Assembly: GCF_009931435.1 (NCBI RefSeq) | Contig: NZ_CP043414.1 | Origin: Escherichia coli | GTDB taxonomy: Bacteria > Pseudomonadota > Gammaproteobacteria > Enterobacterales > Enterobacteriaceae | DNA length: 64,000 nt | Direction: 5' to 3' (one strand) | Part shown: positions 8,754 to 30,359 of the stretch, piece by piece | How positions within the stretch are numbered: position 1 is the first letter of the stretch | Layout of the letters: each line of letters opens with the position of its first letter | Notes under the pieces: generated by a model | Databases searched by the model: none | What the model was told of the DNA's origin: nothing | What the model saw: only the letters and a program-made list of their open reading frames with translations | Program-made: the position numbers and the translations under genes

Positions 8754-9710
8754 GTGTCAGCTATGAAAAACGTTCTGGTCACCGTTCCCAGCTTTTCAGC
8801 GCGTTGTGTTTCTGCCAGCAAGCTGCTAAGAGAAAATCATTTTAACCTTATTATCAAGAATAATGTGGAGCATCTGGTTAAATCAGAATCCACAGTATTA
8901 CGAGAATCTATTTGCGCAGTCATTGCCGGAAAAGATTGTTATCAAGCGGATACGTTATCGCGACTACCAGGAGTGAAAATAATATCGAGATTCGGGACAG
9001 GGATTGATAATATTGATCTTCATACGGCTCGACAATCAGGTATTGTGGTCAATAATGCTGTTGGGATTAATTCAAATGCAGTCGCGGAATTTATCATTGG
9101 TCTTATTTTTGCGAGCATGAGAAATATCCCCGGTAGCTATCATGCGATGCAAAATGGTTATTGGGGCGAGTCGCATGGCTGCGAGTTACAAGGTAAACGT
9201 ATTGGCCTGCTTGGCTACGGCAATATTGGCAAAACACTGGCGAAAAGGTTATCTGGTTTTGATGTTGAGCTTTTAGCTTTTGACAAACAACCCGATTTCC
9301 AGGCCGCAGGCAAAGATGGAGTTCAGTTCGTATCAATTGAAGATATCTTTATGCAGTCTCATGTCATCATCGTTCTTTTGCCATTTTCTCCGGAGCTGGA
9401 GAACTTCATTAGTCATAAATATTTGTCGATGATGCGCAATGGTGCTCTTATCATCAACGCCGCAAGGGGAAAGTTGCTGGATGAGGGTGCTTTACTTCAG
9501 GTAATTGAAGAACGAAATGTTTTTGCAGCGCTGGATGTGTTTAGCTCTGAACCGCTAGCGCAATTTAGCCCATTGCTACATGCCAGGAATATCATTACAA
9601 CGCCGCATATTGCGGCCGCCACCGTTGAGTCATACCAGCAAACCGGGATATACGTTGCCAGGTCGATAATAGATTTCTTTGCAGGAAGGGAGATAAAAAA
9701 CGTGCTGTGA
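8754..9710 (+). CDS. D-isomer-specific 2-hydroxyacid dehydrogenase family protein (NAD-binding)
   Basis: GLLGYGNIGKTLAKRL Rossmann motif and overall family layout. Confidence 0.8.
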   Translation: MSAMKNVLVTVPSFSARCVSASKLLRENHFNLIIKNNVEHLVKSESTVLRESICAVIAGKDCYQADTLSRLPGVKIISRFGTGIDNIDLHTARQSGIVVNNAVGINSNAVAEFIIGLIFASMRNIPGSYHAMQNGYWGESHGCELQGKRIGLLGYGNIGKTLAKRLSGFDVELLAFDKQPDFQAAGKDGVQFVSIEDIFMQSHVIIVLLPFSPELENFISHKYLSMMRNGALIINAARGKLLDEGALLQVIEERNVFAALDVFSSEPLAQFSPLLHARNIITTPHIAAATVESYQQTGIYVARSIIDFFAGREIKNVL

Positions 9711-9736
9711 GTTCAGCTAAGGAAGATTTCAGGTAC

Positions 9737-9771
9737 AAAAAAACCGCAATTTGTGAAACACATTGCGGTTT
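9737..9771 (-). terminator. Rho-independent terminator of tRNA-fMet operon (possibly bidirectional)
   Basis: AACCGCAAT/ATTGCGGTT stem, followed by T-run on minus strand, directly 3' of last tRNA. Confidence 0.5.
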
Positions 9772-9788
9772 ATCAGCATCATAAGTGT

Positions 9789-9865
<77 letters not shown>

Positions 9866-9898
9866 TCACCGTACTGCTTTACTTCATCAAATTTTGAT

Positions 9899-9975
<77 letters not shown>

Positions 9976-10008
9976 TCACCGTACTGCTTTACTTCATCAA
10001 ATTTTAAT

Positions 10009-10085
<77 letters not shown>

Positions 10086-10293
10086 TCCGTGGATGCGCAC
10101 TATACTCCGCTCGCGTTTTCATGCAACCTTTTTTTTACCCAGATCACGGATTTGGTATGATTTTGAGCAAAAACAAATCACTAAAGCCTGTTTTTTGTGC
10201 AAAATTTGCGTCAGGGAGAGGCTGCTCATTTCATTAAACGCAGCGGTTTGTTATCTTCATTGCGCCTTATTTTTTAAACTGAAGAAGAGAACA

Positions 10294-11391
10294 ATGAAAG
10301 GACGTTGGGTAAAGTACCTTCTTATGGGCACGGTTGTGGCAATGCTTGCCGCCTGCTCTTCCAAACCAACCGATCGCGGACAGCAATATAAAGACGGGAA
10401 ATTTACCCAGCCTTTCTCTCTGGTAAACCAGCCAGATGCCGTTGGCGCGCCAATTAACGCCGGTGATTTTGCCGAGCAAATTAACCATATCCGTACTTCG
10501 TCACCGCGTCTGTATGGCAACCAGAGTAATGTTTATAATGCGGTGCAGGAGTGGCTACGCGCAGGCGGTGATACCCGCAATATGCGTCAGTTCGGCATTG
10601 ACGCCTGGCAGATGGAAGGTGCCGACAACTATGGCAACGTGCAGTTTACGGGCTATTACACGCCTGTCATTCAGGCGCGCCATACCCGTCAGGGCGAGTT
10701 CCAGTATCCTATTTACCGTATGCCGCCAAAACGTGGTCGTCTGCCGTCTCGTGCGGAGATCTACGCGGGAGCATTGAGCGATAAATACATCCTCGCTTAC
10801 AGCAACTCTCTGATGGATAACTTCATTATGGATGTGCAGGGTAGCGGGTATATCGATTTTGGTGATGGCAGTCCGCTTAACTTCTTCAGCTATGCCGGAA
10901 AGAATGGTCATGCCTATCGCAGTATTGGTAAGGTGCTGATTGACCGTGGCGAAGTGAAAAAAGAAGATATGTCGATGCAGGCGATTCGTCACTGGGGTGA
11001 AACACACAGTGAAGCCGAGGTTCGCGAGCTGCTGGAACAGAACCCGTCTTTCGTCTTCTTTAAACCGCAATCTTTTGCTCCGGTGAAAGGGGCAAGTGCG
11101 GTGCCGCTGGTTGGTCGCGCTTCAGTTGCGTCCGATCGTTCCATTATCCCGCCTGGTACAACCTTACTGGCAGAAGTGCCGCTGCTGGATAATAACGGCA
11201 AATTTAACGGTCAGTACGAACTGCGGCTGATGGTGGCGCTGGATGTCGGTGGTGCAATCAAAGGCCAACACTTCGATATTTATCAAGGTATCGGGCCGGA
11301 AGCCGGACACCGCGCAGGTTGGTACAACCACTATGGACGTGTTTGGGTGCTGAAAACCGCCCCGGGCGCAGGTAACGTCTTTAGCGGCTGA
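10294..11391 (+). CDS. mltA: Membrane-bound lytic murein transglycosylase A (lipoprotein)
   Basis: MKGRWVKYLLMGTVVAMLAACSS lipobox; 365 aa; ORF-track N-terminal extension overlaps tRNA genes and is rejected. Confidence 0.9.
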   Translation: MKGRWVKYLLMGTVVAMLAACSSKPTDRGQQYKDGKFTQPFSLVNQPDAVGAPINAGDFAEQINHIRTSSPRLYGNQSNVYNAVQEWLRAGGDTRNMRQFGIDAWQMEGADNYGNVQFTGYYTPVIQARHTRQGEFQYPIYRMPPKRGRLPSRAEIYAGALSDKYILAYSNSLMDNFIMDVQGSGYIDFGDGSPLNFFSYAGKNGHAYRSIGKVLIDRGEVKKEDMSMQAIRHWGETHSEAEVRELLEQNPSFVFFKPQSFAPVKGASAVPLVGRASVASDRSIIPPGTTLLAEVPLLDNNGKFNGQYELRLMVALDVGGAIKGQHFDIYQGIGPEAGHRAGWYNHYGRVWVLKTAPGAGNVFSG

Positions 11392-17210: not shown

Positions 17211-17942
17211 TCAGGCTGTTACCAAAGAAGCCGCAACCTGGCGCTCATCAGAAATAATGTGCGTGACCTCATCCAGATGCCCGATGCGGGCTTCCCCTGA
17301 ACGATTAAATTTACTTTTATCAATCAATAACAACGATTGCGCGGCACGTTTTAATAGCATCGATTTGTAATCAGCGTTGATGGCATTGGAGTCCCACAGT
17401 GCACCGCTGCTATCGATCCCTTCACAAGAAAAAATAAACAGATCGATTTCCAGCGATTTAAGTTGGGAAATCAGCGAGGGATTGACGTAACAGCCATATT
17501 TGCGCTCAAGTGTGCCGCCGGAACTGATCAGTTGAATGCGTTCACGTTTACCGAGTTCATGGCAAATCGGATGGCTATTGGTGAAGACCTGAATGTCGAT
17601 GTCAGGCAACTGGCGTGCCAGATACCAGCAAGTTGAACTGGCGTCTAAGGCTATCACCATCCCTTCTTCAATCCACGCGAGCGCTTCGCGCGCGATATCT
17701 GCTTTATGCGCATAATGGCTTTTCAGCCGGATGTGAAAGGGATCGCCACTGTCTTGATTTTGACGGTGGATATATTTAGCGCGCCCATGATTGCGCAGAA
17801 TTTTACCCTGCGTCTGTAATTCATTGAGATCGCGACGAATGGTTTCTTTACTGACCTTTAGCTGTTCAGAGAGAGCTTCCGTGGTCAGGCTGGTATGGTT
17901 CAGCAGCAGGTCGACTATCGCTTGCTGGCGTGCCGCTTTCAT
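17211..17942 (-). CDS. fucR: DeoR-family L-fucose operon activator FucR
   Basis: MKAARQQAIVDLLLNHTSLTTEALSEQLKVSKETIRRDL; 243 aa. Confidence 0.9.
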   Translation of the reverse strand: MKAARQQAIVDLLLNHTSLTTEALSEQLKVSKETIRRDLNELQTQGKILRNHGRAKYIHRQNQDSGDPFHIRLKSHYAHKADIAREALAWIEEGMVIALDASSTCWYLARQLPDIDIQVFTNSHPICHELGKRERIQLISSGGTLERKYGCYVNPSLISQLKSLEIDLFIFSCEGIDSSGALWDSNAINADYKSMLLKRAAQSLLLIDKSKFNRSGEARIGHLDEVTHIISDERQVAASLVTA

Positions 17943-17999
17943 ATTTTTCACCCCATCATTCGATAACCGCCCGCGTCATGCGGGCGTACCGGTATGAGA

Positions 18000-19950: not shown

Positions 19951-21726
19951 TTAACGCTTGTACAACGGACCGTAGTTCTGGCAAGCGCGGTAATCCAGGC
20001 CTTCAATATCCATGCCGTGCGCAGCCCAGGCAGAAGGACGATACACTTTGGTCTCTTCAACGTTGTGCATACATACCGGGATACGCAGCATGGAGGCGAG
20101 AGTGATAAAGTCTGCGCCAACGTGGCCGATGGTCAGAACCCCATGGTTAGCGCCCCAGTTCGCCATTACCGAGTACACATCCGTAAACGGCCCTTTACCG
20201 GTGAGGCGCGGTGCAAACCAGGTGGTTGGCCAGGTTGAGTTGGTGCGTTTGTTGAGGATGTCATGCACATCCTTCGGTAACTCAACGCTCCAGCCTTCCG
20301 CGATTTGCAGTACCGGTCCCAGGCCTTTGATGATGTTGACACGGGTCATGGTGAACGGGACACCGCCTTCAGTAAGGAAGCGGGAAGAGTAACCACCGCC
20401 ACGGAAATATTCGTGGATAGCCGGGCACCATTCGGTCGCGGCGAGGCAAGCGTCAGCCTCTTGCTGAGAGATTTCCCAGTGCGGCTTCATCGTCGGTTTA
20501 CCTTCGCTGTCGCGTTGTTTACAGGATCCGTCCAGCGCAGCAGAACCGGAGTTGATCAAGTGGATGATGCCGTGTTCTGCCAGTCCGTCCAGTTTATGCC
20601 CCGTTACTCGCTCAATTGCTTCTGGTGACCAGTAGGTACGCACATCGGCAAATACCTGAGCGGTACCGGTGAGCTGGTGGCCCATTAGCATTGCCACGCC
20701 GTTAAGACTGTCGTTTTCGGTCGCCACGACGAAGGGTTCACGCACGCCATTCCAGTCAAATGAACTGTTAAGGATCGCTTCGGCGGTGTCGCCATTGGGA
20801 TATTGATCGGTCCAGTGACGTTGTCCCTGGAAGCCCGCAGCGATGGCGTTGTAGCCAAGTGATTCTTCCACGCGACCAATATCGGCCAGTTTGCTGTTGC
20901 CTTGCATCATGTCGCGGATACACATCGCCATCAGTAAACTTTCGCGTAGAACTGCGCGGCTTTGCTCGGCATTGCGTTGATACTGTTTGTTATTTTCATC
21001 TTCGCCATAGCGGAAGTTTTTATCAGCCCAGGCCAGCGCCATTTCCAGTTCTGCTTCGTCGTAAATCTTCTGATCAATACGGCGACGCAGTTCGGTCATA
21101 TCCACCGCCTGGACTTTCATTCCCAGCCAGGATTCAAAGAAGTTGTGGTCAACGATGGAACCGGCGATCCCCATCGAAACGCCGCCCAGCGACAGATAGC
21201 TTTTACCTTTCATACTGGCGACTGCCAAACCGGCGCGGGCAAAGCGCAGCAGTTTTTCTTCAACGTCGGCAGGAATCGATGTGTCATCGGCATCCTGAAC
21301 GTCATGACCGTAAATGGAGAATGCCGGGATGCCTTTCTGGCTGTGAGCTGCCAGAGCCGCTGCCAGGTAAACAGCGCCGGGACGTTCAGTGCCGTTAAAG
21401 CCCCAAATGGCTTTCGGGCGGGTAGGGTCCATGTCAATGGTTTCACTGCCATAGCACCAGCAAGGCGTTACCGTAATGGTGAGGCCTACATTCTGGCTGC
21501 TGAATTTTTCTTCGCAAGCAGCAGCTTCAGCCATACCCGCGATACAGGTATCGGAAATGACACACTCGACGGCAGCTCCGCAGGCATGGCGCAGTTTCTC
21601 GGTCAGCAGTGCGGCCGTAGCTTTCGCCATATTCATTGTTTGTTCTTCAAGCGACTCACGAACACCCATGCGACGACCGTCAATAACCGGGCGGATACCA
21701 ATTTTCGGTAACGTATTAATTTTCAT
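19951..21726 (-). CDS. fucI: L-fucose isomerase FucI
   Basis: 591 aa; [19 protein letters not shown]-type N-terminus. Confidence 0.9.
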
Positions 21727-21808
21727 CAGGATTCCTCATCTCGCTTTATTGGCGCTCTGCTAAGGCGGAGAAAGGAAACCACCGAAGCAGTAGTATTGGT
21801 CATTATTT

Positions 21809-21824
21809 GCTAACTCGAGTTAGC
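21809..21824. promoter_or_regulatory. 16-bp perfect palindrome GCTAACTCGAGTTAGC (copy 1), candidate operator
   Basis: Exact self-complementary 16-mer with central CG, in fucI/ABC-operon divergent intergenic region. Confidence 0.35.
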
Positions 21825-21868
21825 TTAGGTTTGTAGGCTTTTTATGCACAACTTTTTTGTTGTTGAAA

Positions 21869-21884
21869 TGTGAGGGGCTTCACG
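21869..21884. promoter_or_regulatory. CRP-like site TGTGAGGGGCTTCACG
   Basis: 9/10 match to TGTGA-N6-TCACA half-sites. Confidence 0.3.
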
Positions 21885-22047
21885 AGAAGTGGTTAAAATA
21901 CGATCTCTGTCAAATTATTATTTAGCGGGATAAAAATAAATTTTACGTATAATCAAATGGTTATTAGATTTTAATGGTTATGCATCACAGTTTTAACTCA
22001 AATGATTTGGCTAATTTGTATACCTAAAATAGCTTTAAAAGGCGATC

Positions 22048-22063
22048 GCTAACTCGAGTTAGC
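22048..22063. promoter_or_regulatory. 16-bp perfect palindrome GCTAACTCGAGTTAGC (copy 2), candidate operator
   Basis: Identical to copy 1, 239 bp away, ~130 bp upstream of ABC ATPase start. Confidence 0.35.
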
Positions 22064-22195
22064 AAAATGCGAAGAATAGATTGATACGATGAATATTTAT
22101 TCAAAGGTTATTCGTATCACAGTGGAGATGGCTTTAGTAGCGACGTTTATGCCGTACTTCACATTTTCAGTTTCTGATTATTGAGGAAAGCTGCA

Positions 22196-23695
22196 ATGTC
22201 CGAAACATTTTTGCAAATGAAGCATATCACCAAACGCTTTCCTGGAGTGTTGGCGCTTAATGACGTGCAATTTACCCTACGCCGGGGCGAGGTTCATGCA
22301 TTATTAGGTGAAAATGGTGCAGGAAAATCTACATTAATGAAAATTTTGTCGGGGGTTTATCAACCTGATGAAGGCGAAATAATTTTTGAAGATAAATTAG
22401 TCTCATTTTCTGATCCGTTAAGTGCGCAAAACGTAGGTATTACTATTATTCACCAGGAATTTAATTTATTTCCCGAGCTTACAGTAGAAGAAAATATTTT
22501 TATCGGCAGGGAGTTTTGTAAAAAAAATCGCTGGCGTCTGGATGAGAAACAGCAACGCAAGGCGACGATTGAAATTTTGCAAAAATTAAATTTGGCGATC
22601 AAACCAGATACTCTGGTTGCCGACCTTACGGTAGCTCAACAACAGATGGTAGAAATTGCCAAGGCCATTTCGGTTAACGCCAGGATTCTCATTATGGATG
22701 AACCTACTGCGGCGTTAACAGAAACTGAAATTGAAAGCTTATTTCGCGTCACCCGGTTATTGAAAGAACAGGGGACCGGCATTGTGTATATATCCCACCG
22801 TCTGGAAGAGTTGGCGCTAATTGCCGACCGCGCGACTGTAATGCGTGATGGTCAGTACATCAGCACAGTAGATTATGAGTGCGTAAAAATCAGCGATCTG
22901 ATTGCCATGATGGTTGGTCGCGATTTAGGGAATATCTATCCCCGCCGCGAGGCCATACAGCAGCGGATGCCGGTTCTGGAGGTCAACGGACTGACGCGCA
23001 AAGGCGTACTGAACGATATTAATTTTACGCTTTATCGTGGCGAGATCCTCGGCTTTGCCGGACTGATGGGGGCAGGTCGTACTGAACTTGCGCGTGCGAT
23101 TTTTGGTGCGGACTCCATTGACAGCGGAACGCTAAAGTTAAATGGTAAGGAAACCGTTATTAAAGATATTTCGGATGCTATTCAGCAGGGAATTAGTTAC
23201 CTGACGGAAGACCGAAAAAAAGAAGGGTTGGCACTGAATTTATCTGTTGAACGAAATATTATGTTAGGAAATTACCCTGAGTATTCCGATCGTTTTGGGA
23301 ATGTCGATTCGCGTCGTTGCCAACAAACCAGTGAGGAACAGGTAAAAGCGTTAAGGATTAAAACGCCAAATCTTGAACAGGCTGCATTAAATCTAAGTGG
23401 AGGAAATCAGCAGAAAATTATAATTGCACGTTGGGTGTGTAAAGATACTGATATTTTAATCTTCGATGAACCCACTCGCGGCATTGATGTTGGCGCCAAA
23501 CTGGAAATCTATGAGTTAATGAATCGCCTGGTGGCAAAAGGGAAATCAATCATCATGATCTCCTCTGAATTGCCGGAGGTGTTAGGAATGTGCGACCGTA
23601 TTTTAGTGATGCGCAGTGGTCGAATTACTGGCGAACTTAGCGCAAATGAAGCGACACAAGAAAAAATCATGCAATACGCGACGTTAGAGGATTAA
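22196..23695 (+). CDS. Sugar ABC transporter ATP-binding protein, tandem ABC domains (RbsA/MglA-like)
   Basis: Two Walker A (GENGAGKST; GLMGAGRTE) and two signature motifs (LSGGNQQK); ATG 22196 with GAGGA RBS. Confidence 0.85.
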   Translation: MSETFLQMKHITKRFPGVLALNDVQFTLRRGEVHALLGENGAGKSTLMKILSGVYQPDEGEIIFEDKLVSFSDPLSAQNVGITIIHQEFNLFPELTVEENIFIGREFCKKNRWRLDEKQQRKATIEILQKLNLAIKPDTLVADLTVAQQQMVEIAKAISVNARILIMDEPTAALTETEIESLFRVTRLLKEQGTGIVYISHRLEELALIADRATVMRDGQYISTVDYECVKISDLIAMMVGRDLGNIYPRREAIQQRMPVLEVNGLTRKGVLNDINFTLYRGEILGFAGLMGAGRTELARAIFGADSIDSGTLKLNGKETVIKDISDAIQQGISYLTEDRKKEGLALNLSVERNIMLGNYPEYSDRFGNVDSRRCQQTSEEQVKALRIKTPNLEQAALNLSGGNQQKIIIARWVCKDTDILIFDEPTRGIDVGAKLEIYELMNRLVAKGKSIIMISSELPEVLGMCDRILVMRSGRITGELSANEATQEKIMQYATLED

Positions 23696-23698
23696 ATT

Positions 23699-24682
23699 AT
23701 GACTATCTCTGTAACCTCTCCAGACAGCAATAATAAGAAAATAAAGATAAATAAAGAACTTTTGATGCGCCTTGCGCCTCTTTTTAGCTTAATTATATTA
23801 GTGCTGTTTTTTAGTTTCAGCTCTCCCTTTTTCTTTAATACCGAAAATATCATGACGATTGCTCTGCAAACGTCGGTTATCGGCATTATGGCCATTGGGG
23901 TAACTTTCGTCATTATTACCGCGGGCATCGATCTTTCATTGGGTTCCGTGGTGGCTTTTTCTGGTGTCGCCGTGGGGATTTGCGCCACACTGGGCCTGCC
24001 GCTGCCAGTGTGTATTATTGCCGGTGTTTTAGCCGGTGGAATGTGCGGCTATGTGAATGGTTTGTTGGTCACTAAAATGACTATTCCACCGTTTATCGCT
24101 ACCTTGGGCCTGATGATGTCCGTCAGAGGTATCAATATGGTGATGACCGACGGGCGCGCCATCTATTTTGCCGATTACCCGATGTTCAAAACGCTCGCTC
24201 AGGGACGCTTGTTTGATGTGCTGCCTTATCCTGTTTTCTACCTGGTCATTGTGGCGCTTGTCGGCGCTTACATCCTGAAGAAAACGGTTATTGGTCGCTA
24301 TGTCTATGCCGTAGGCAGTAATGAAGTTGCTGCTCATCTTTCTGGTATTAAAGTTCAGCGCGTGAAAATTTTCGTCTATGCCTTCTGTGGTTTATTAACC
24401 GGGATTGCGGGTGTCATTCTCGCTTCTCGTCTCAACTCCGGACAACCGACGGTGGGTGTGGGTTATGAGCTGGAAGCTATTGCTGCGGTAGTGATCGGCG
24501 GAACCAGCTTAATGGGCGGTATTGGCACTATTGGCGGCACAATCATTGGCGCTTTCATTATGAGTGTACTGAAAAATGGCCTCAATTTAATGGGGGTCTC
24601 TCAGTTCTGGCAAATGGTCGCGATGGGCGTAGTTGTGGTCGCTGCCGTTTACCTCGATACATTACGCAAAAAGATTCGTTGA
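23699..24682 (+). CDS. Sugar ABC transporter permease (RbsC/AraH family)
   Basis: ~10 TM segments, family layout. Confidence 0.85.
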   Translation: MTISVTSPDSNNKKIKINKELLMRLAPLFSLIILVLFFSFSSPFFFNTENIMTIALQTSVIGIMAIGVTFVIITAGIDLSLGSVVAFSGVAVGICATLGLPLPVCIIAGVLAGGMCGYVNGLLVTKMTIPPFIATLGLMMSVRGINMVMTDGRAIYFADYPMFKTLAQGRLFDVLPYPVFYLVIVALVGAYILKKTVIGRYVYAVGSNEVAAHLSGIKVQRVKIFVYAFCGLLTGIAGVILASRLNSGQPTVGVGYELEAIAAVVIGGTSLMGGIGTIGGTIIGAFIMSVLKNGLNLMGVSQFWQMVAMGVVVVAAVYLDTLRKKIR

Positions 24683-24755
24683 CTTAGGCTCCCTGTTTTA
24701 TCGGGAAACAACTGCCCTGACGTTAAGGGTGATTCACTCAGAACGGAGTACAACA

Positions 24756-25706
24756 ATGAAAACCAGGCATTTTATCTATGCGTTATCTCTGCTGGCTTGC
24801 GTAAGTTCCAGCGCACTGGCGAAGGATTTAAATCTTCCGGTTGTTAGTAAAGGTTTCCAACATGAATTCTGGCAAACCGTAAAAATGGGGACTGAAGCTG
24901 CGGCTAAAGAGTTGGGGGATAAAACCAGCTATGTTGGCCCGGCTGATGAAACGCAAATAGCCGAGCAAATTCAGTTAGTCGAAAATGCGATGGCGCAGAA
25001 ACCGAATGGCTTGCTTCTGGCAGCCCTCGACGCGAATGCGCTCGCCCCACTGGTAGAAACGGCAAATTCACGCGGTATCAAAGTGGTGACCTTTGATTCA
25101 GGCATCAATTCAGACATTCCGGTGAGTTTTGTCGCCACCAATAACCGTAAAGCAGGTGCTCAGGCAGCTGATGCCTTAGCTGCGCAGGTAAATAATAAAG
25201 GGAAAGTTGGGATTATCGCGCACGTTGCAGGAACATCTTCCGCTATTGAACGCTCGGAAGGCTTCATGGAGCGTATGAAAGAAAAATATCCTGACATTAA
25301 AGTCTTACCCGTTCAGTACAGCGATGGTGACCCGCAAAAAGCGATGGATAAAACTATCGATATGATTCAGGCCAATCCCGATCTTGCTGGGATCTATGGC
25401 ACCAATGAAGGTTCAACGCTCGGGGTGGCGAATGCCATTGATAGCCAGAATCTGAAAGGTAAGGTGAAGGTCATTGGTTTTGATAGTACGGAAGCGATTA
25501 TTAACTTCCTGAAGAACGGGGTCATTCAGGGCTTTGTTGTTCAGGATGCATACCAGATTGGCTATCAAGGGATCAAAACGTTGAACGCGGCCCTTTCGGG
25601 GCAAGCCGTTGAAAAAGAGATCGATATTCCCGTGAAATTTGTTAATGCCGAGAATATTAACACGCCAGAAATCGACAAACTCCTGCACCCATTCGGTAAG
25701 AAATAA
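24756..25706 (+). CDS. Periplasmic sugar-binding protein (RbsB-like, type I PBP) with signal peptide
   Basis: MKTRHFIYALSLLACVSSSALA signal peptide; GGAG RBS; ORF-track upstream extension overlaps permease and is rejected. Confidence 0.85.
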   Translation: MKTRHFIYALSLLACVSSSALAKDLNLPVVSKGFQHEFWQTVKMGTEAAAKELGDKTSYVGPADETQIAEQIQLVENAMAQKPNGLLLAALDANALAPLVETANSRGIKVVTFDSGINSDIPVSFVATNNRKAGAQAADALAAQVNNKGKVGIIAHVAGTSSAIERSEGFMERMKEKYPDIKVLPVQYSDGDPQKAMDKTIDMIQANPDLAGIYGTNEGSTLGVANAIDSQNLKGKVKVIGFDSTEAIINFLKNGVIQGFVVQDAYQIGYQGIKTLNAALSGQAVEKEIDIPVKFVNAENINTPEIDKLLHPFGKK

Positions 25707-25759
25707 AAAAATTGGGGATGAATTCTCATCCCCGTTATCTCCAGCGTCAGGGAGGCTTT

Positions 25760-27340
25760 ATGCACAACGGTTATTTTCTCGGTGTCGATGTCGGATCGGC
25801 CAGTGTCAGGGCAGGCGTTTACAGTGCCAGTGGCCACAGGCTGGCATTCGCTACTGCGCCCGTCTCCCAGTTTCGCCCTGGCGGCGAGCGTGTCGAACAG
25901 TCTTCGGCAGAGATCTGGCAACAAGTTTGTAAAACGGTGAAAGAGGCGACAGCTTTGGCAGGCATCCCCATTTCCGCAATTCGCTCACTGGGTTTTGACG
26001 CTACCTGCTCGCTGGTTGTTCTTGATGAACAAGGCCAGGGTTTAGCGGTTTCGTCCGGTGGATCTGCGAATCACGACATTATTATGTGGATGGATCATCG
26101 TGCAACTGTCGAGACGGCGCAGATTAACGCAACGAAGGATCCCGTATTGCGCTACGTTGGCGGCGAAGTGAGCGTCGAGATGGAGTTACCAAAGTTACGT
26201 TGGTTGAAGACGCATCTACCGCAAACCTGGCAGGCCGCTCATCGCTTTTTCGATCTGGCGGATTTTCTGGTCTGGAAAGCAACAGGGCGAGACGTCGCGG
26301 GATTGTGCACGCTAACGTGTAAATGGAATTATCTGGCTCATGAACAACGCTTTAGCCATAGCTTACTGGAATCGGTAGACCTGACCGACATGCTCGAAAG
26401 AATTCCCGCCGAAATTCTTCCGCCTGGTGCTGCCGTGGGAACTTTAACTGCCACAGCTGCTGAAGAATTAGGATTAACGACCAATGTTATCGTGGCCAGT
26501 GGTTTGATTGATGCCCATGCCGGTGGCATGGCGCTGGCTGGCGCGCAGCCATCAGGAACGCTGGCATTGATAAGCGGAACGTCGAATTGCCACATGTTGT
26601 GCAGTGAAAAAGAAATATTCACCCCTGGCGTCTGGGGGCCATACTGGTCGGCCATGTTGCCAAATTACTGGCTAACTGAAGGCGGGCAAAGCGCCGCAGG
26701 GGCGCTGGTGGAGTGGACGCTTCAGGAGTCCGGGGCAAGCGCAAATCTTTTTAACAAGGCGCAGCAACGCGGGTGTCATCCGATTCAACTGATTAATGAA
26801 TGGGTAGCCGCCCTGGAAGCTAACGAGTCAGAACCCACACGAAATTTACATGTGCTTGCCGATCATCACGGCAACCGTTCGCCACGAGCGCGGCCCGATG
26901 CCAGAGGCAGTGTTTATGGCTTAACACTGGAGCGTGGTGAAAATCAGCTCGCGCGGCTTTATCTTGCGACTTTACAGGCAATAGCCTTTGGCACCAGACA
27001 TATTATTGAAACTCTGCGGGAAAATGGGCATACCATTACCCGATTAACATTATGTGGTGGTGCAACGCACAACCCTTTATGGCTACGCGAATATGCAGAC
27101 GTGACAGGTTGCGATATCCACCTGATGCAAGAAGAAGATGCCGTTACGTTGGGCGCAGCAATTAGCGGCGCTGTTGCCAGCGGAGCATGGGGGGATTTTA
27201 CATCTGCGTGTAAAGCAATGGTTGAAGCCGGAGAGGTTATTCAGGTAAATCCACAACGCCGTGAATTTTTAGAGCGTAAATACCGGGTTTACCTGACGCT
27301 TTGGGAGCAACAACAGGCGGTTAACCAACTGATGCAATAA
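25760..27340 (+). CDS. FGGY-family carbohydrate (pentulose-type) kinase
   Basis: GVDVGSASVRAGV N-terminal FGGY motif; ~526 aa; GGAGG RBS. Confidence 0.8.
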   Translation: MHNGYFLGVDVGSASVRAGVYSASGHRLAFATAPVSQFRPGGERVEQSSAEIWQQVCKTVKEATALAGIPISAIRSLGFDATCSLVVLDEQGQGLAVSSGGSANHDIIMWMDHRATVETAQINATKDPVLRYVGGEVSVEMELPKLRWLKTHLPQTWQAAHRFFDLADFLVWKATGRDVAGLCTLTCKWNYLAHEQRFSHSLLESVDLTDMLERIPAEILPPGAAVGTLTATAAEELGLTTNVIVASGLIDAHAGGMALAGAQPSGTLALISGTSNCHMLCSEKEIFTPGVWGPYWSAMLPNYWLTEGGQSAAGALVEWTLQESGASANLFNKAQQRGCHPIQLINEWVAALEANESEPTRNLHVLADHHGNRSPRARPDARGSVYGLTLERGENQLARLYLATLQAIAFGTRHIIETLRENGHTITRLTLCGGATHNPLWLREYADVTGCDIHLMQEEDAVTLGAAISGAVASGAWGDFTSACKAMVEAGEVIQVNPQRREFLERKYRVYLTLWEQQQAVNQLMQ

Positions 27341-27404
27341 GACAAAAGTTGAAAATACTTTTATGATTGTGATTTGACGTCTGGATGTTAACTGGGAAAT
27401 ACCT

Positions 27405-28403
27405 ATGGCTAAAACAGTAGAGCAGATAGCCAGCGACCTGAATTTATCGGTTACGACCGTGCGACTGGTGCTAAATGGAAAAGCGGAACAATATCGAATC
27501 AGCGTCAAAACCCAAACGCGTATCAATGAATATGTTGAACGCTATGGTTATATCATTAATCATTCCGCTCGCAGCCTTAAGCTTAACAAAACTGATACAT
27601 TAGGGTTGATTGTTCCCAACATATCCAACGTCTTTTTTGCTACGCTGGCAGAAAAACTCGAACAACGCTGTCGACGTTCCGGATATCAACTTACAATCAG
27701 TTGCACTTATGATGATGTTGACTATGAAAATAAATTGACGAAAGCATTTATCGCACGAAATGTAGATGGTCTTTTTATTGTTCCTTCGACGCTGGAAAAT
27801 CAGCAGCATCATTTACGCAAAATTCGTAAGCCAATGGTTTTACTCGATCGTGATTTTAAATATACCGATAACGCATTGGTAGAGAGTAATAATATTTCTG
27901 GCGGAGAAAAGCTGACGCAAAATATTCTTGAGGCCGGGCAGGCTCCAGTATGGTTTTTGCTGGGAGATGCCGGTTTGCCGAGTATCAGCGATCGTCTGAC
28001 AGGTTATTTGAATGCGTTGGCAAAAAAAGGGATTACCCATCGCGATTGGGTGCGGGAAGGTCCGGTAAATACTCCGGAAGGCGGCTATGTCATTATGGAA
28101 AAACTCATTGAAGAGCAGGGATGTCCGCAGGCATTTATCGCCTCGTCTTTACCTGTGCTTGAAGGCGCTGTCCGCGCGATTCGCGACCGTCTTGGCGCTG
28201 TACCGCCAGAAATCAATATTGGCACTTTCGATGAACATCCTATGCTGGGATTTCTCGCCAACAATGTCTGGTCAATGCAGCAGGATGAAAATGCCTGGGC
28301 AGAAAAAGCGTTCGAAATGATGTTAAGCGCGATCGAAGAAAGACCAGTAAAAAAAACAGTTAAAGTAGAAATGAAATTAATTAAGCGCATAAGAAAAAAA
28401 TAA
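27405..28403 (+). CDS. LacI-family transcriptional regulator
   Basis: N-terminal HTH (TVEQIASDLNLSVTTVRLVLNG) plus periplasmic-binding-like effector domain. Confidence 0.85.
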   Translation: MAKTVEQIASDLNLSVTTVRLVLNGKAEQYRISVKTQTRINEYVERYGYIINHSARSLKLNKTDTLGLIVPNISNVFFATLAEKLEQRCRRSGYQLTISCTYDDVDYENKLTKAFIARNVDGLFIVPSTLENQQHHLRKIRKPMVLLDRDFKYTDNALVESNNISGGEKLTQNILEAGQAPVWFLLGDAGLPSISDRLTGYLNALAKKGITHRDWVREGPVNTPEGGYVIMEKLIEEQGCPQAFIASSLPVLEGAVRAIRDRLGAVPPEINIGTFDEHPMLGFLANNVWSMQQDENAWAEKAFEMMLSAIEERPVKKTVKVEMKLIKRIRKK

Positions 28404-28535
28404 TAATCGCCAAAAGATATCAGGCTACTGAACAATGATATTCAGTGGCCTCCCCTTACTAAAAATAACCCCGTCTTCATTTGCGGTGCTGTTTTACGCA
28501 ACAAGGCGAGCTGAAACTGTATCTGGAGAATAGAA

Positions 28536-29183
28536 ATGGAAAGAACACGTTTATCCCGTGAAATAATTGAAACCTGTCTGGAAATGACGCGCCTTGGGTT
28601 AAATCAGGGGACAGCGGGGAATGTCAGCACACGTTTTGAAAACGGCATGTTGATTACTCCCAGCGGTATTCCTTATGAAAGAATGACGGAGAATATGATT
28701 GTCTATGTTGATGGCAACGGCAAATACGAAGAAGGTAAGATTCCTTCCAGCGAATGGCGTTTCCATATGGCGGCCTATCAAAGCAGACCGGATGCCAACG
28801 CGGTTGTTCACAATCATGCCGTTCATTGCACGGCAGTTTCCATTCTTAACCGACCGATCCCTGCTATTCACTACATGATTGCGGCGGCTGGCGGTAATTC
28901 TATTCCTTGCGCGCCTTATGCGACCTTTGGAACTCGGGAACTTTCTGAACATGTTGCGCTGGCTCTCAAAAATCGTAAGGCAACTTTGTTACAACATCAT
29001 GGGCTTATCGCTTGTGAGGTGAATCTGGAGAAAGCGTTATGGCTGGCGCATGAAGTTGAAGTGCTGGCGCAACTTTACCTGACGACCCTGGCGATTACGG
29101 ACCCGGTGCCAGTGCTGAGCGATGAAGAGATTGCCGTAGTGCTGGAGAAATTCAAAACCTACGGGTTACGGATTGAAGAGTAA
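28536..29183 (+). CDS. fucA: L-fuculose-1-phosphate aldolase
   Basis: Near-complete match to FucA from memory (..GTAGNVS..HNHAVHCTAVSILNR..); 215 aa. Confidence 0.9.
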   Translation: MERTRLSREIIETCLEMTRLGLNQGTAGNVSTRFENGMLITPSGIPYERMTENMIVYVDGNGKYEEGKIPSSEWRFHMAAYQSRPDANAVVHNHAVHCTAVSILNRPIPAIHYMIAAAGGNSIPCAPYATFGTRELSEHVALALKNRKATLLQHHGLIACEVNLEKALWLAHEVEVLAQLYLTTLAITDPVPVLSDEEIAVVLEKFKTYGLRIEE

Positions 29184-29207
29184 TTTCGTAAAGCAACAAG
29201 GAGAAGG

Positions 29208-30359
29208 ATGATGGCTAACAGAATGATTCTGAACGAAACGGCATGGTTTGGTCGGGGGGCTGTTGGAGCTTTAACCGATGAGGTGAAACGCCGTGGTTAT
29301 CAGAAGGCACTGATCGTCACCGATAAAACGCTGGTGCAATGCGGCGTGGTGGCGAAAGTGACCGATAAGATGGATGCTGCAGGGCTGGCATGGGCGATTT
29401 ACGATGGTGTAGTGCCCAACCCGACAATTACTGTCGTCAAAGAAGGGCTTGGTGTATTCCAGAGTAGCGGTGCGGATTACCTGATCGCTATTGGTGGTGG
29501 TTCTCCACAGGACACGTGTAAAGCGATTGGCATCATCAGCAACAACCCGGAATTCGCCGATGTGCGCAGTCTGGAAGGGCTTTCCCCGACCAATAAACCC
29601 AGTGTACCGATTCTGGCAATCCCCACCACAGCAGGCACTGCGGCAGAAGTGACCATTAACTATGTGATCACTGACGAAGAAAAACGACGCAAGTTCGTTT
29701 GTGTTGATCCGCATGATATCCCGCAGGTGGCATTTATTGACGCTGACATGATGGATGGTATGCCGCCTGCGCTGAAAGCCGCGACGGGTGTCGATGCGCT
29801 CACTCATGCTATTGAGGGGTATATTACCCGTGGCGCGTGGGCGCTAACCGATGCACTGCACATTAAAGCGATTGAAATCATTGCTGGGGCGCTGCGAGGA
29901 TCGGTTGCTGGTGATAAGGATGCCGGAGAAGAAATGGCGCTCGGGCAGTATGTTGCGGGTATGGGCTTCTCGAATGTTGGGTTAGGGTTGGTGCATGGTA
30001 TGGCGCATCCACTGGGCGCGTTTTATAACACGCCACACGGTGTTGCGAACGCCATCCTGTTACCGCATGTCATGCGCTATAACGCTGACTTTACCGGTGA
30101 GAAGTACCGCGATATCGCGCGCGTTATGGGCGTGAAAGTGGAAGGTATGAGCCTGGAAGAGGCGCGTAATGCCGCTGTTGAAGCGGTATTTGCTCTCAAC
30201 CGTGATGTCGGTATTCCGCCACATTTGCGTGATGTTGGTGTACGCAAGGAAGACATTCCGGCACTGGCGCAGGCGGCTCTGGACGATGTTTGTACCGGTG
30301 GCAACCCGCGTGAAGCAACGCTTGAGGATATTGTAGCGCTTTACCATACCGCCTGGTAA
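29208..30359 (+). CDS. fucO: L-1,2-propanediol oxidoreductase (lactaldehyde reductase)
   Basis: Fe-ADH family; MANRMILNETAWFGRGAVGAL N-terminus. Confidence 0.9.
   Translation: MMANRMILNETAWFGRGAVGALTDEVKRRGYQKALIVTDKTLVQCGVVAKVTDKMDAAGLAWAIYDGVVPNPTITVVKEGLGVFQSSGADYLIAIGGGSPQDTCKAIGIISNNPEFADVRSLEGLSPTNKPSVPILAIPTTAGTAAEVTINYVITDEEKRRKFVCVDPHDIPQVAFIDADMMDGMPPALKAATGVDALTHAIEGYITRGAWALTDALHIKAIEIIAGALRGSVAGDKDAGEEMALGQYVAGMGFSNVGLGLVHGMAHPLGAFYNTPHGVANAILLPHVMRYNADFTGEKYRDIARVMGVKVEGMSLEEARNAAVEAVFALNRDVGIPPHLRDVGVRKEDIPALAQAALDDVCTGGNPREATLEDIVALYHTAW

Follow-up and report, generated by a model that had tools for sequence, protein, structure and literature searches.

In Escherichia coli K-12 (MG1655), the fucA and fucP genes are divergently oriented and 546 bp apart, a distance that is also given in the literature (PMC11011485). 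The promoter of the fucAO genes, PfucAO, is located within this region and its transcription start lies 63 nt upstream of fucA. It is activated by FucR and CRP, for which the sites OFucR2, OFucR3, OCrp2 and OCrp3 have been validated. Its -10 element, aATtAa, is non-consensus. The stretch from -270 to -1 is required for full activity, and a remnant of 123 bp is essentially inactive (PMC11011485). Four to five clustered FucR cores and several CRP-like sites are found in the K-12 intergenic region. The picture of K-12 given in an earlier sequence-only reading, namely a long divergent fucA/fucP region with a FucR/CRP-dependent promoter, is therefore correct.

A different organization of the fucose locus has been described as 'Variant 2', in which an ABC transporter takes the place of fucP; it was reported for 50 of 1058 genomes and 7.5% of isolates (Saif et al. 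2023, PMC10221146). The kinase encoded in the fuc-dar cluster of E. coli B is the D-ribulokinase DarK (Elsinghorst and Mortlock 1994, as cited in PMC12307932), and both D-ribulokinase activity and growth on D-arabinose have been documented for strain B (PMC3446290; PMC12307932). The poor or absent growth of B strains on fucose has been attributed to the loss of fucP (PMC3446290, PMC10221146). In the publications on the variant that were consulted, such as PMC10221146, nothing is said about the LacI-family gene, its spacer to fucA, the operators or the transcription of fucAO, nor are fuc genes mentioned in the main text of a BL21(DE3) transcriptome paper. Thus, the locus variant is already known, its lacI-fucA junction is uncharacterized, and the mechanism that is implied for it here is that of ordinary operon read-through.

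The locus studied here lies in a window of 64 kb, the term used below for the whole stretch of E. coli DNA that was analysed. It is the known fuc-dar (darK) cluster of E. coli B, or 'Variant 2' of the fucose operon: fucP is absent, and an ABC transporter and an FGGY pentulose kinase are encoded between fucI and fucA. The minus strand carries fucR (17211-17951), with a protein 99% identical to that of K-12, fucK, and fucI (19951-21726). On the plus strand, the genes for the ABC ATPase (22196-23695), the permease (23699-24682) and the substrate-binding protein (24756-25706) are followed by the kinase gene (25760-27340), which is called darK according to PMC12307932, citing Elsinghorst and Mortlock 1994. 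Then come the gene of a Cra/FruR-like LacI-family regulator (27405-28403), fucA (28536-29183), and fucO for lactaldehyde reductase (29211-30359), which starts 27 bp past fucA. The successive gaps from the ATPase gene through the permease, binding-protein and kinase genes to the regulator gene are 3, 73, 53 and 64 bp. In the window fucA is intact, and its protein scores above the FucA equivalog cut-off. The LacI-family reading frame terminates with a double TAA and stops at 28403, while the ATG of fucA at 28536 is the earliest start available in its frame. The spacer (28404-28535, plus strand) is therefore exactly 132 bp long, and the same gap is annotated by RefSeq in a genome that is 99.6% identical (L001: LacI-family gene 9406-10404, fucA 10537-11184). 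The short distance reported in the sequence-only reading is thereby confirmed.

Of 5426 complete E. coli genomes, 382-383 (about 7%) have the full variant arrangement, a frequency to be set beside the figures of Saif et al. for genomes and isolates. The spacer itself is found in 383 of them, with at least 99% identity in 378, and it is 100% identical in BL21-type strains, ATCC 11303 and ATCC 8739. A search of all 5426 genomes with the spacer (blastn, 11-base words) gave matches in variant genomes only, with a single match per genome. A repeated or mobile element, such as a REP or a MITE, was rejected on account of this single copy in every genome bearing the spacer.

The boundaries with K-12-type DNA are informative as to the origin of this junction. 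On the left side, fucI is 95-100% identical to K-12 per 100 bp up to its start codon, where homology breaks, and nine mismatches with K-12 occur in the final 29 bp before the break. On the right side, the alignment of the window with K-12 (blastn) restarts only 21 bp into fucA, and nothing is aligned ahead of codon 8. The gene is thus a mosaic: its first ~240 bp (28536 to ~28775, about 80 codons) display 70-83% DNA identity to K-12, and the remainder (28776-29183) is 96-100% identical. The right recombination junction accordingly lies within fucA, about 240 bp from its start. The 5' end of fucA, its ribosome-binding site and the spacer before it all came with the variant segment, which takes the place of fucP, of the control region of 546 bp and of the first third of fucA. 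With the junction at this position, the entire K-12 control region is lost. In some K-12-type genomes other breakpoints are seen in fucA, as for H30, whose alignment begins only at 28713, with 97% identity. The weak CRP-dependent internal promoter PfucO of K-12 (PMC11011485) falls in the K-12-like part of fucA (28776-29183); it is probably retained and would supply fucO with a basal route that is independent of the spacer.

Compared with its counterpart in Escherichia whittamii, the module shows 88-93% DNA identity, and the flanking fucI, fucA 3' end and fucO differ from that species to the same extent (89-90% identity). This equal divergence of module and flanks indicates an old alternative form of the locus and no recent insertion. 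To speak of an inserted module, as the sequence-only reading did, is therefore imprecise, all the more so as the segment replaces existing DNA. The 132 bp would represent the native intercistronic spacer of an ABC-transporter form of the fucose locus.

The same reading had proposed that fucAO is either read through from upstream or run from a truncated promoter. That the 132 bp are a truncated remnant of the FucR/CRP-dependent fucAO promoter of K-12 has positional analogy as the one point in its favour. The spacer is matched in variant genomes only and similarity to K-12 begins within fucA, so that an alignment with the K-12 fucA upstream region, which had been suggested as a check, has nothing to align. 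The validated FucR core CGGtCA, searched as CGG[TG]CA or CGGTC, is absent from the spacer as well as from the fucI/ABC region (21727-22195), and no CRP-like site with up to two mismatches to TGTGA-N6-TCACA is present within 28250-28560. A true K-12 remnant of 123 bp is inactive anyway (PMC11011485). Since the junction lies inside fucA and the variant has its own 5' end and spacer, the 132 bp cannot be a truncated K-12 promoter; this option is refuted by the sequence comparison, its probability being practically negligible. FucR itself may be an orphan regulator in these strains, given that none of the non-coding DNA in the variant locus contains its core motif.

The other option, read-through, gains from a comparison across the Enterobacterales. 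In a scan of one genome per species, 58 loci were found to encode relatives of the LacI-family regulator. About 29 of these (from about 29 species and at least 10 genera) share the order fucI on the minus strand followed by the genes for ABC ATPase, permease, substrate-binding protein, in part darK, the LacI-family regulator, fucA and in part fucO. They belong to Escherichia, Citrobacter, Pluralibacter, Phytobacter, Lelliottia, Enterobacter, Huaxiibacter, Pseudenterobacter, Atlantibacter, Buttiauxella and Serratia. The co-directional adjacency of the regulator gene and fucA is thus kept across distant taxa. The spacer measures 26-28 bp in Lelliottia, Enterobacter, Huaxiibacter and Pseudenterobacter, and C. 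amalonaticus ku-bf3, C. sedlakii and two Buttiauxella species have 38-57 bp; a promoter would not fit into spacers of this size. The 132 bp of E. coli, an ambiguous length for an operon junction, are to be compared with 26-57 bp in seven other species and 187-284 bp in three; among all loci, most have 81-146 bp and a few 171-284 bp. It is this adjacency in at least 10 genera, with spacers as short as 26-28 bp, that favours read-through into fucAO. darK is absent from the otherwise identical loci of several genera (L008, L009, L017, L023, L025-L029 and L031). Because it is missing from so many loci, it is an add-on between the binding-protein gene and the regulator gene, the module core being an ABC-type fucose locus with fucA as a regular member.

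A second argument for read-through is provided by the putative operators. The regulator encoded directly before fucA matches LacI-family models over its full length, with a LacI-type helix-turn-helix and a sugar-binding core. Its best NCBIfam matches are fruct_sucro_rep and Cra, both below cut-off. The score for Cra, 217 bits against the 385 required, is under the equivalog cut-off, so that the regulator is not Cra. Among solved structures Cra is the closest match, and PurR and CcpA are matched as well. The 64 kb window holds two copies of a perfect palindrome of 16 bp, GCTAACTCGAGTTAGC, where 0.14 would be expected. Both copies, the putative operators O1 (21809-21824) and O2 (22048-22063), are located in the divergent fucI/ABC region at a distance of 239 bp, and no other site with up to three mismatches is present in the window. 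The pair is kept in nearly all related loci bearing the ABC module, in all genera found, with a spacing of 238-240 bp, and the lacI-fucA spacers of the related loci never contain the operator, again with up to three mismatches allowed. Between O1 and O2 lies a CRP-like site with one mismatch, TGTGAGGGGCTTCACG (21869-21884), of which TGTGA-N6-TCACG is invariant across 15 aligned loci. A candidate -10 element of the ABC-operon promoter, TAAAAT (22025-22030, plus strand), is part of the block CTAAAATAGCTTT, which is conserved across genera directly upstream of O2; the operator follows 17 bp downstream of the conserved TAAAAT.

The central CG of GCTAACTCGAGTTAGC gives it the architecture typical of LacI-family operators, and its layout, GCT-N3-TCGA-N3-AGC, is the same as in Cra sites. 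The two palindromes are probably the operator pair of a Cra-like LacI-family regulator that controls the divergent fucI and ABC units, and we infer that this repressor and CRP act on both units from the fucI/ABC region. As the operators and the CRP-like site are conserved only in this region, read-through into fucAO is favoured. In Lelliottia, Huaxiibacter, Superficieibacter and Chimaeribacter, extra operator copies are located 3-4 kb past the regulator gene (L020 and L022 at 12555; L030 and L033 at ~11931; L035 and L058 at ~11900). This suggests that the regulon has additional members there or that the locus is laid out differently.

The spacer has several elements of its own. Its last part, the ribosome-binding block AACTGTATCTGGAGAATAGAA (28515-28535, plus strand), contains the Shine-Dalgarno sequence GGAG at 28525-28528, and the ribosome-binding region, (A)ACTGTAYCYGGAGAA, is the sole block that is common to all lacI-fucA spacers, including those of 26-28 bp. 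Near the other end, hairpin 1 (28422-28451, plus strand) consists of an 11 bp stem and an 8 nt loop, followed by CCCCUUAC. It has a folding energy of -16.3 kcal/mol (z -4.8; none of 200 shuffles folds as well) and thereby the GC-rich stem-loop of an intrinsic (Rho-independent) terminator. A U-tract is absent after this stem: the tail CCCCUUAC has two U in 8 nt, and the terminator scan did not call it. Without a U-tract, hairpin 1 is no canonical intrinsic terminator. An inverted repeat (CGTCTT...AAGGCG), inverted repeat 2, forms a weak hairpin at 28472-28508 on the plus strand. Its blocks CCCGTCTT and AAGACGAG are kept in Citrobacter and Escherichia, and its fold in E. coli is no better than that of shuffled sequences (z -0.6), so it was rejected as a stable structure. 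Both hairpins are conserved in sequence within Citrobacter and Escherichia; their covariation within these genera is not significant, with 80-103 of 500 shuffles reaching the observed values. At the same position as hairpin 1, hairpins with other stem sequences and similar C/U-rich tails are found in Pluralibacter, Phytobacter, strain RIT691 and Atlantibacter, that of Pluralibacter having a better U-tract and being scored as terminator-like. A known RNA family was also rejected, as Rfam gave no match at E ≤1 across 21500-29300. A leader peptide (a reading frame of 32 amino acids at 28435-28533) is not conserved in E. whittamii or Citrobacter. As a smaller possibility, the segment with hairpin 1 and inverted repeat 2 could be a cis-acting RNA element that tunes fucA apart from the upstream genes. 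The spacer between the binding-protein gene and darK (25707-25759) shows the same layout as the spacer before fucA, an A-run followed by a GC-rich hairpin (25714-25733), and this hairpin is scored as a minus-strand terminator only.

It could be imagined that hairpin 1 terminates the upstream operon and that fucAO has a promoter of its own, either in the spacer past the hairpin or in the 3' end of the regulator gene. Hairpin 1 is indeed very stable, and the terminator-like score of the Pluralibacter hairpin at the same position points in this direction. In Serratia sp. DD3, the spacer of 284 bp contains a promoter-like site as well as a terminator-like hairpin of canonical form, from which it is seen that the lacI-fucA junction can evolve in this way and give rise to a separate transcription unit. 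Furthermore, about 85 nt from hairpin 1 to the ribosome-binding site are conserved in Citrobacter and Escherichia and absent from the genera with short spacers. This segment could hide an unconventional promoter, which counts against read-through, as do the strength of hairpin 1 and the length of 132 bp, which is long for an intra-operon junction. The plus strand of the spacer was scanned for consensus promoters and has no site of at least 9/12 and no TAnnnT hexamer, and CRP, FucR and LacI-type operator sites are lacking as well. The scan is insensitive to non-consensus types like K-12 PfucAO, and its negative outcome is weak evidence because PfucAO itself has a non-consensus -10; other fuc promoters may be of the same kind. 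A promoter-like site scoring 9/12 does exist inside the regulator gene at 28219-28246. In other taxa it varies freely at synonymous positions, the first base of the -10 being variable in most, and its conservation is no greater than coding requires. As an internal promoter it is not supported, although in E. coli it may still act as one. Against an own fucAO promoter also stand the tail of hairpin 1, with its two U in 8 nt, and the 26-57 bp spacers of other genera, which are too short to hold one. Taken together, we consider a separate fucAO promoter, the main rival of read-through, rather unlikely, if worth keeping in view.

Equivalent hairpins argue in the other direction. In spacers of 81-104 bp they end just 29-46 nt before the fucA ATG, so that fucA could there hardly be expressed except via read-through. 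Within the unit itself, no plus-strand terminators are predicted between the genes, and all gaps are short. We therefore prefer read-through, in which the genes for the ABC ATPase, permease, binding protein, DarK, the LacI-type regulator, FucA and FucO would form one co-directional unit of about 8 kb, with the last two in distal position. Transcription would start some 6.5 kb before fucA, in the divergent fucI/ABC region, where the CRP site and the two identical operators are located; the presumed ligand of the latter is the repressor encoded directly before fucA. RNA polymerase would pass through the spacer, hairpin 1 being at most a weak terminator or an RNA-stabilizing stem, and the conserved Shine-Dalgarno sequence in front of fucA would allow this gene to be translated independently. 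In this way fucAO would be induced by derepression jointly with the transporter, and FucR would be left without a site. fucA is most likely situated at the end of a long sugar-transporter operon, without a promoter of its own. That fucAO is read through from the upstream, repressor-controlled ABC-operon promoter, past hairpin 1, appears reasonably probable. Of the two options named in the sequence-only reading, it is the one that the conserved adjacency and the position of the operators support best, the truncated promoter having fallen with the lack of any similarity to K-12.

A further possibility is that fucA is poorly expressed or dispensable in these strains. D-arabinose would then be used via FucI and DarK, bypassing FucA, fucO would be transcribed from the weak PfucO, and the spacer would have no role. 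The laboratory B strains provide a reason to consider it, as they carry IS1A within fucA, in contrast to the window. This insertion is tolerated by 41 complete genomes, all of the laboratory B lineage (BL21, REL606, C41/C43 and others); in NEBExpress it is found at L062:3037-4461, and the corresponding position in the window is ~28976, within fucA. REL606 grows on D-arabinose and not on L-fucose (PMC3446290), and PfucO sits in the K-12-like 3' part of fucA, which is also compatible with a dispensable fucA. On the other hand, the IS1 junction is present in just 41 of the 383 variant genomes, fucA in the window is intact, and the ribosome-binding block before it is conserved across genera. Moreover, all clinical isolates of Saif et al., including three that were fucP-negative and ABC-positive, fermented fucose (PMC10221146). 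A roleless spacer before a dispensable fucA is in our view distinctly improbable. The disruption of fucA by IS1 is an alternative cause of the fucose defect of B strains that is not mentioned in PMC3446290 or PMC10221146. That laboratory B strains grow poorly on fucose may be due to fucA::IS1 and not to the loss of fucP, which would correct a likely misattribution.

To return to read-through, it has a consequence that goes beyond this junction. We tentatively propose, as quite conceivable but short of likely, that E. coli harbours, as segregating alleles, two non-homologous circuits controlling the same fucose enzymes: a positive one with the DeoR-type activator FucR and CRP, which is the common form, and a negative one with a Cra-like LacI-family repressor. 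In the variant, present in about 7% of genomes, the repressor would act via a pair of operators at a fixed distance of 238-240 bp, possibly through a loop. The fucAO genes would be distal genes of a transporter operon, and FucR would have no target. If this is true, about 7% of E. coli, ATCC 8739 and the B lineage among them, would lack the K-12 type of fucAO response to FucR and fuculose-1-phosphate, and fucAO would instead follow a different repressor and the promoter of the ABC transporter. This would bear on metabolic models of B and Crooks strains, on propanediol and fucose engineering that is based on K-12 regulation of fucAO, and on the reading of fucose phenotypes of variant strains.

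In certain aspects, the variant locus is reminiscent of other described systems. Cra/FruR-type repressors, whose palindromic operators span 16 bp around a central CG, are the best family and structure matches of its regulator. Intercistronic stem-loops occur in polycistronic sugar operons, an example being the REP hairpins between malE and malF. Hairpin 1 is likewise a stable structure between two co-directional cistrons that lacks a U-tract, but it is single-copy and neither a REP nor another repeated element. The Rbl D-ribulose locus of Citrobacter rodentium also combines an ABC transporter with a dedicated FGGY D-ribulokinase, in another genomic context and without linkage to fuc, and the fuc-linked DarK has been assigned to a clade separate from the Rbl kinase (PMC12307932). 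Compared with PfucAO of K-12, the spacer of the variant occupies the same position relative to fucA and precedes the same two enzymes. Yet it has no similarity to that promoter, sites for FucR and CRP are lacking, and it falls short of half the length that K-12-type control needs. Unlike in K-12, the control of fucAO in the variant is probably negative, by a repressor, and exerted 6.5 kb upstream.
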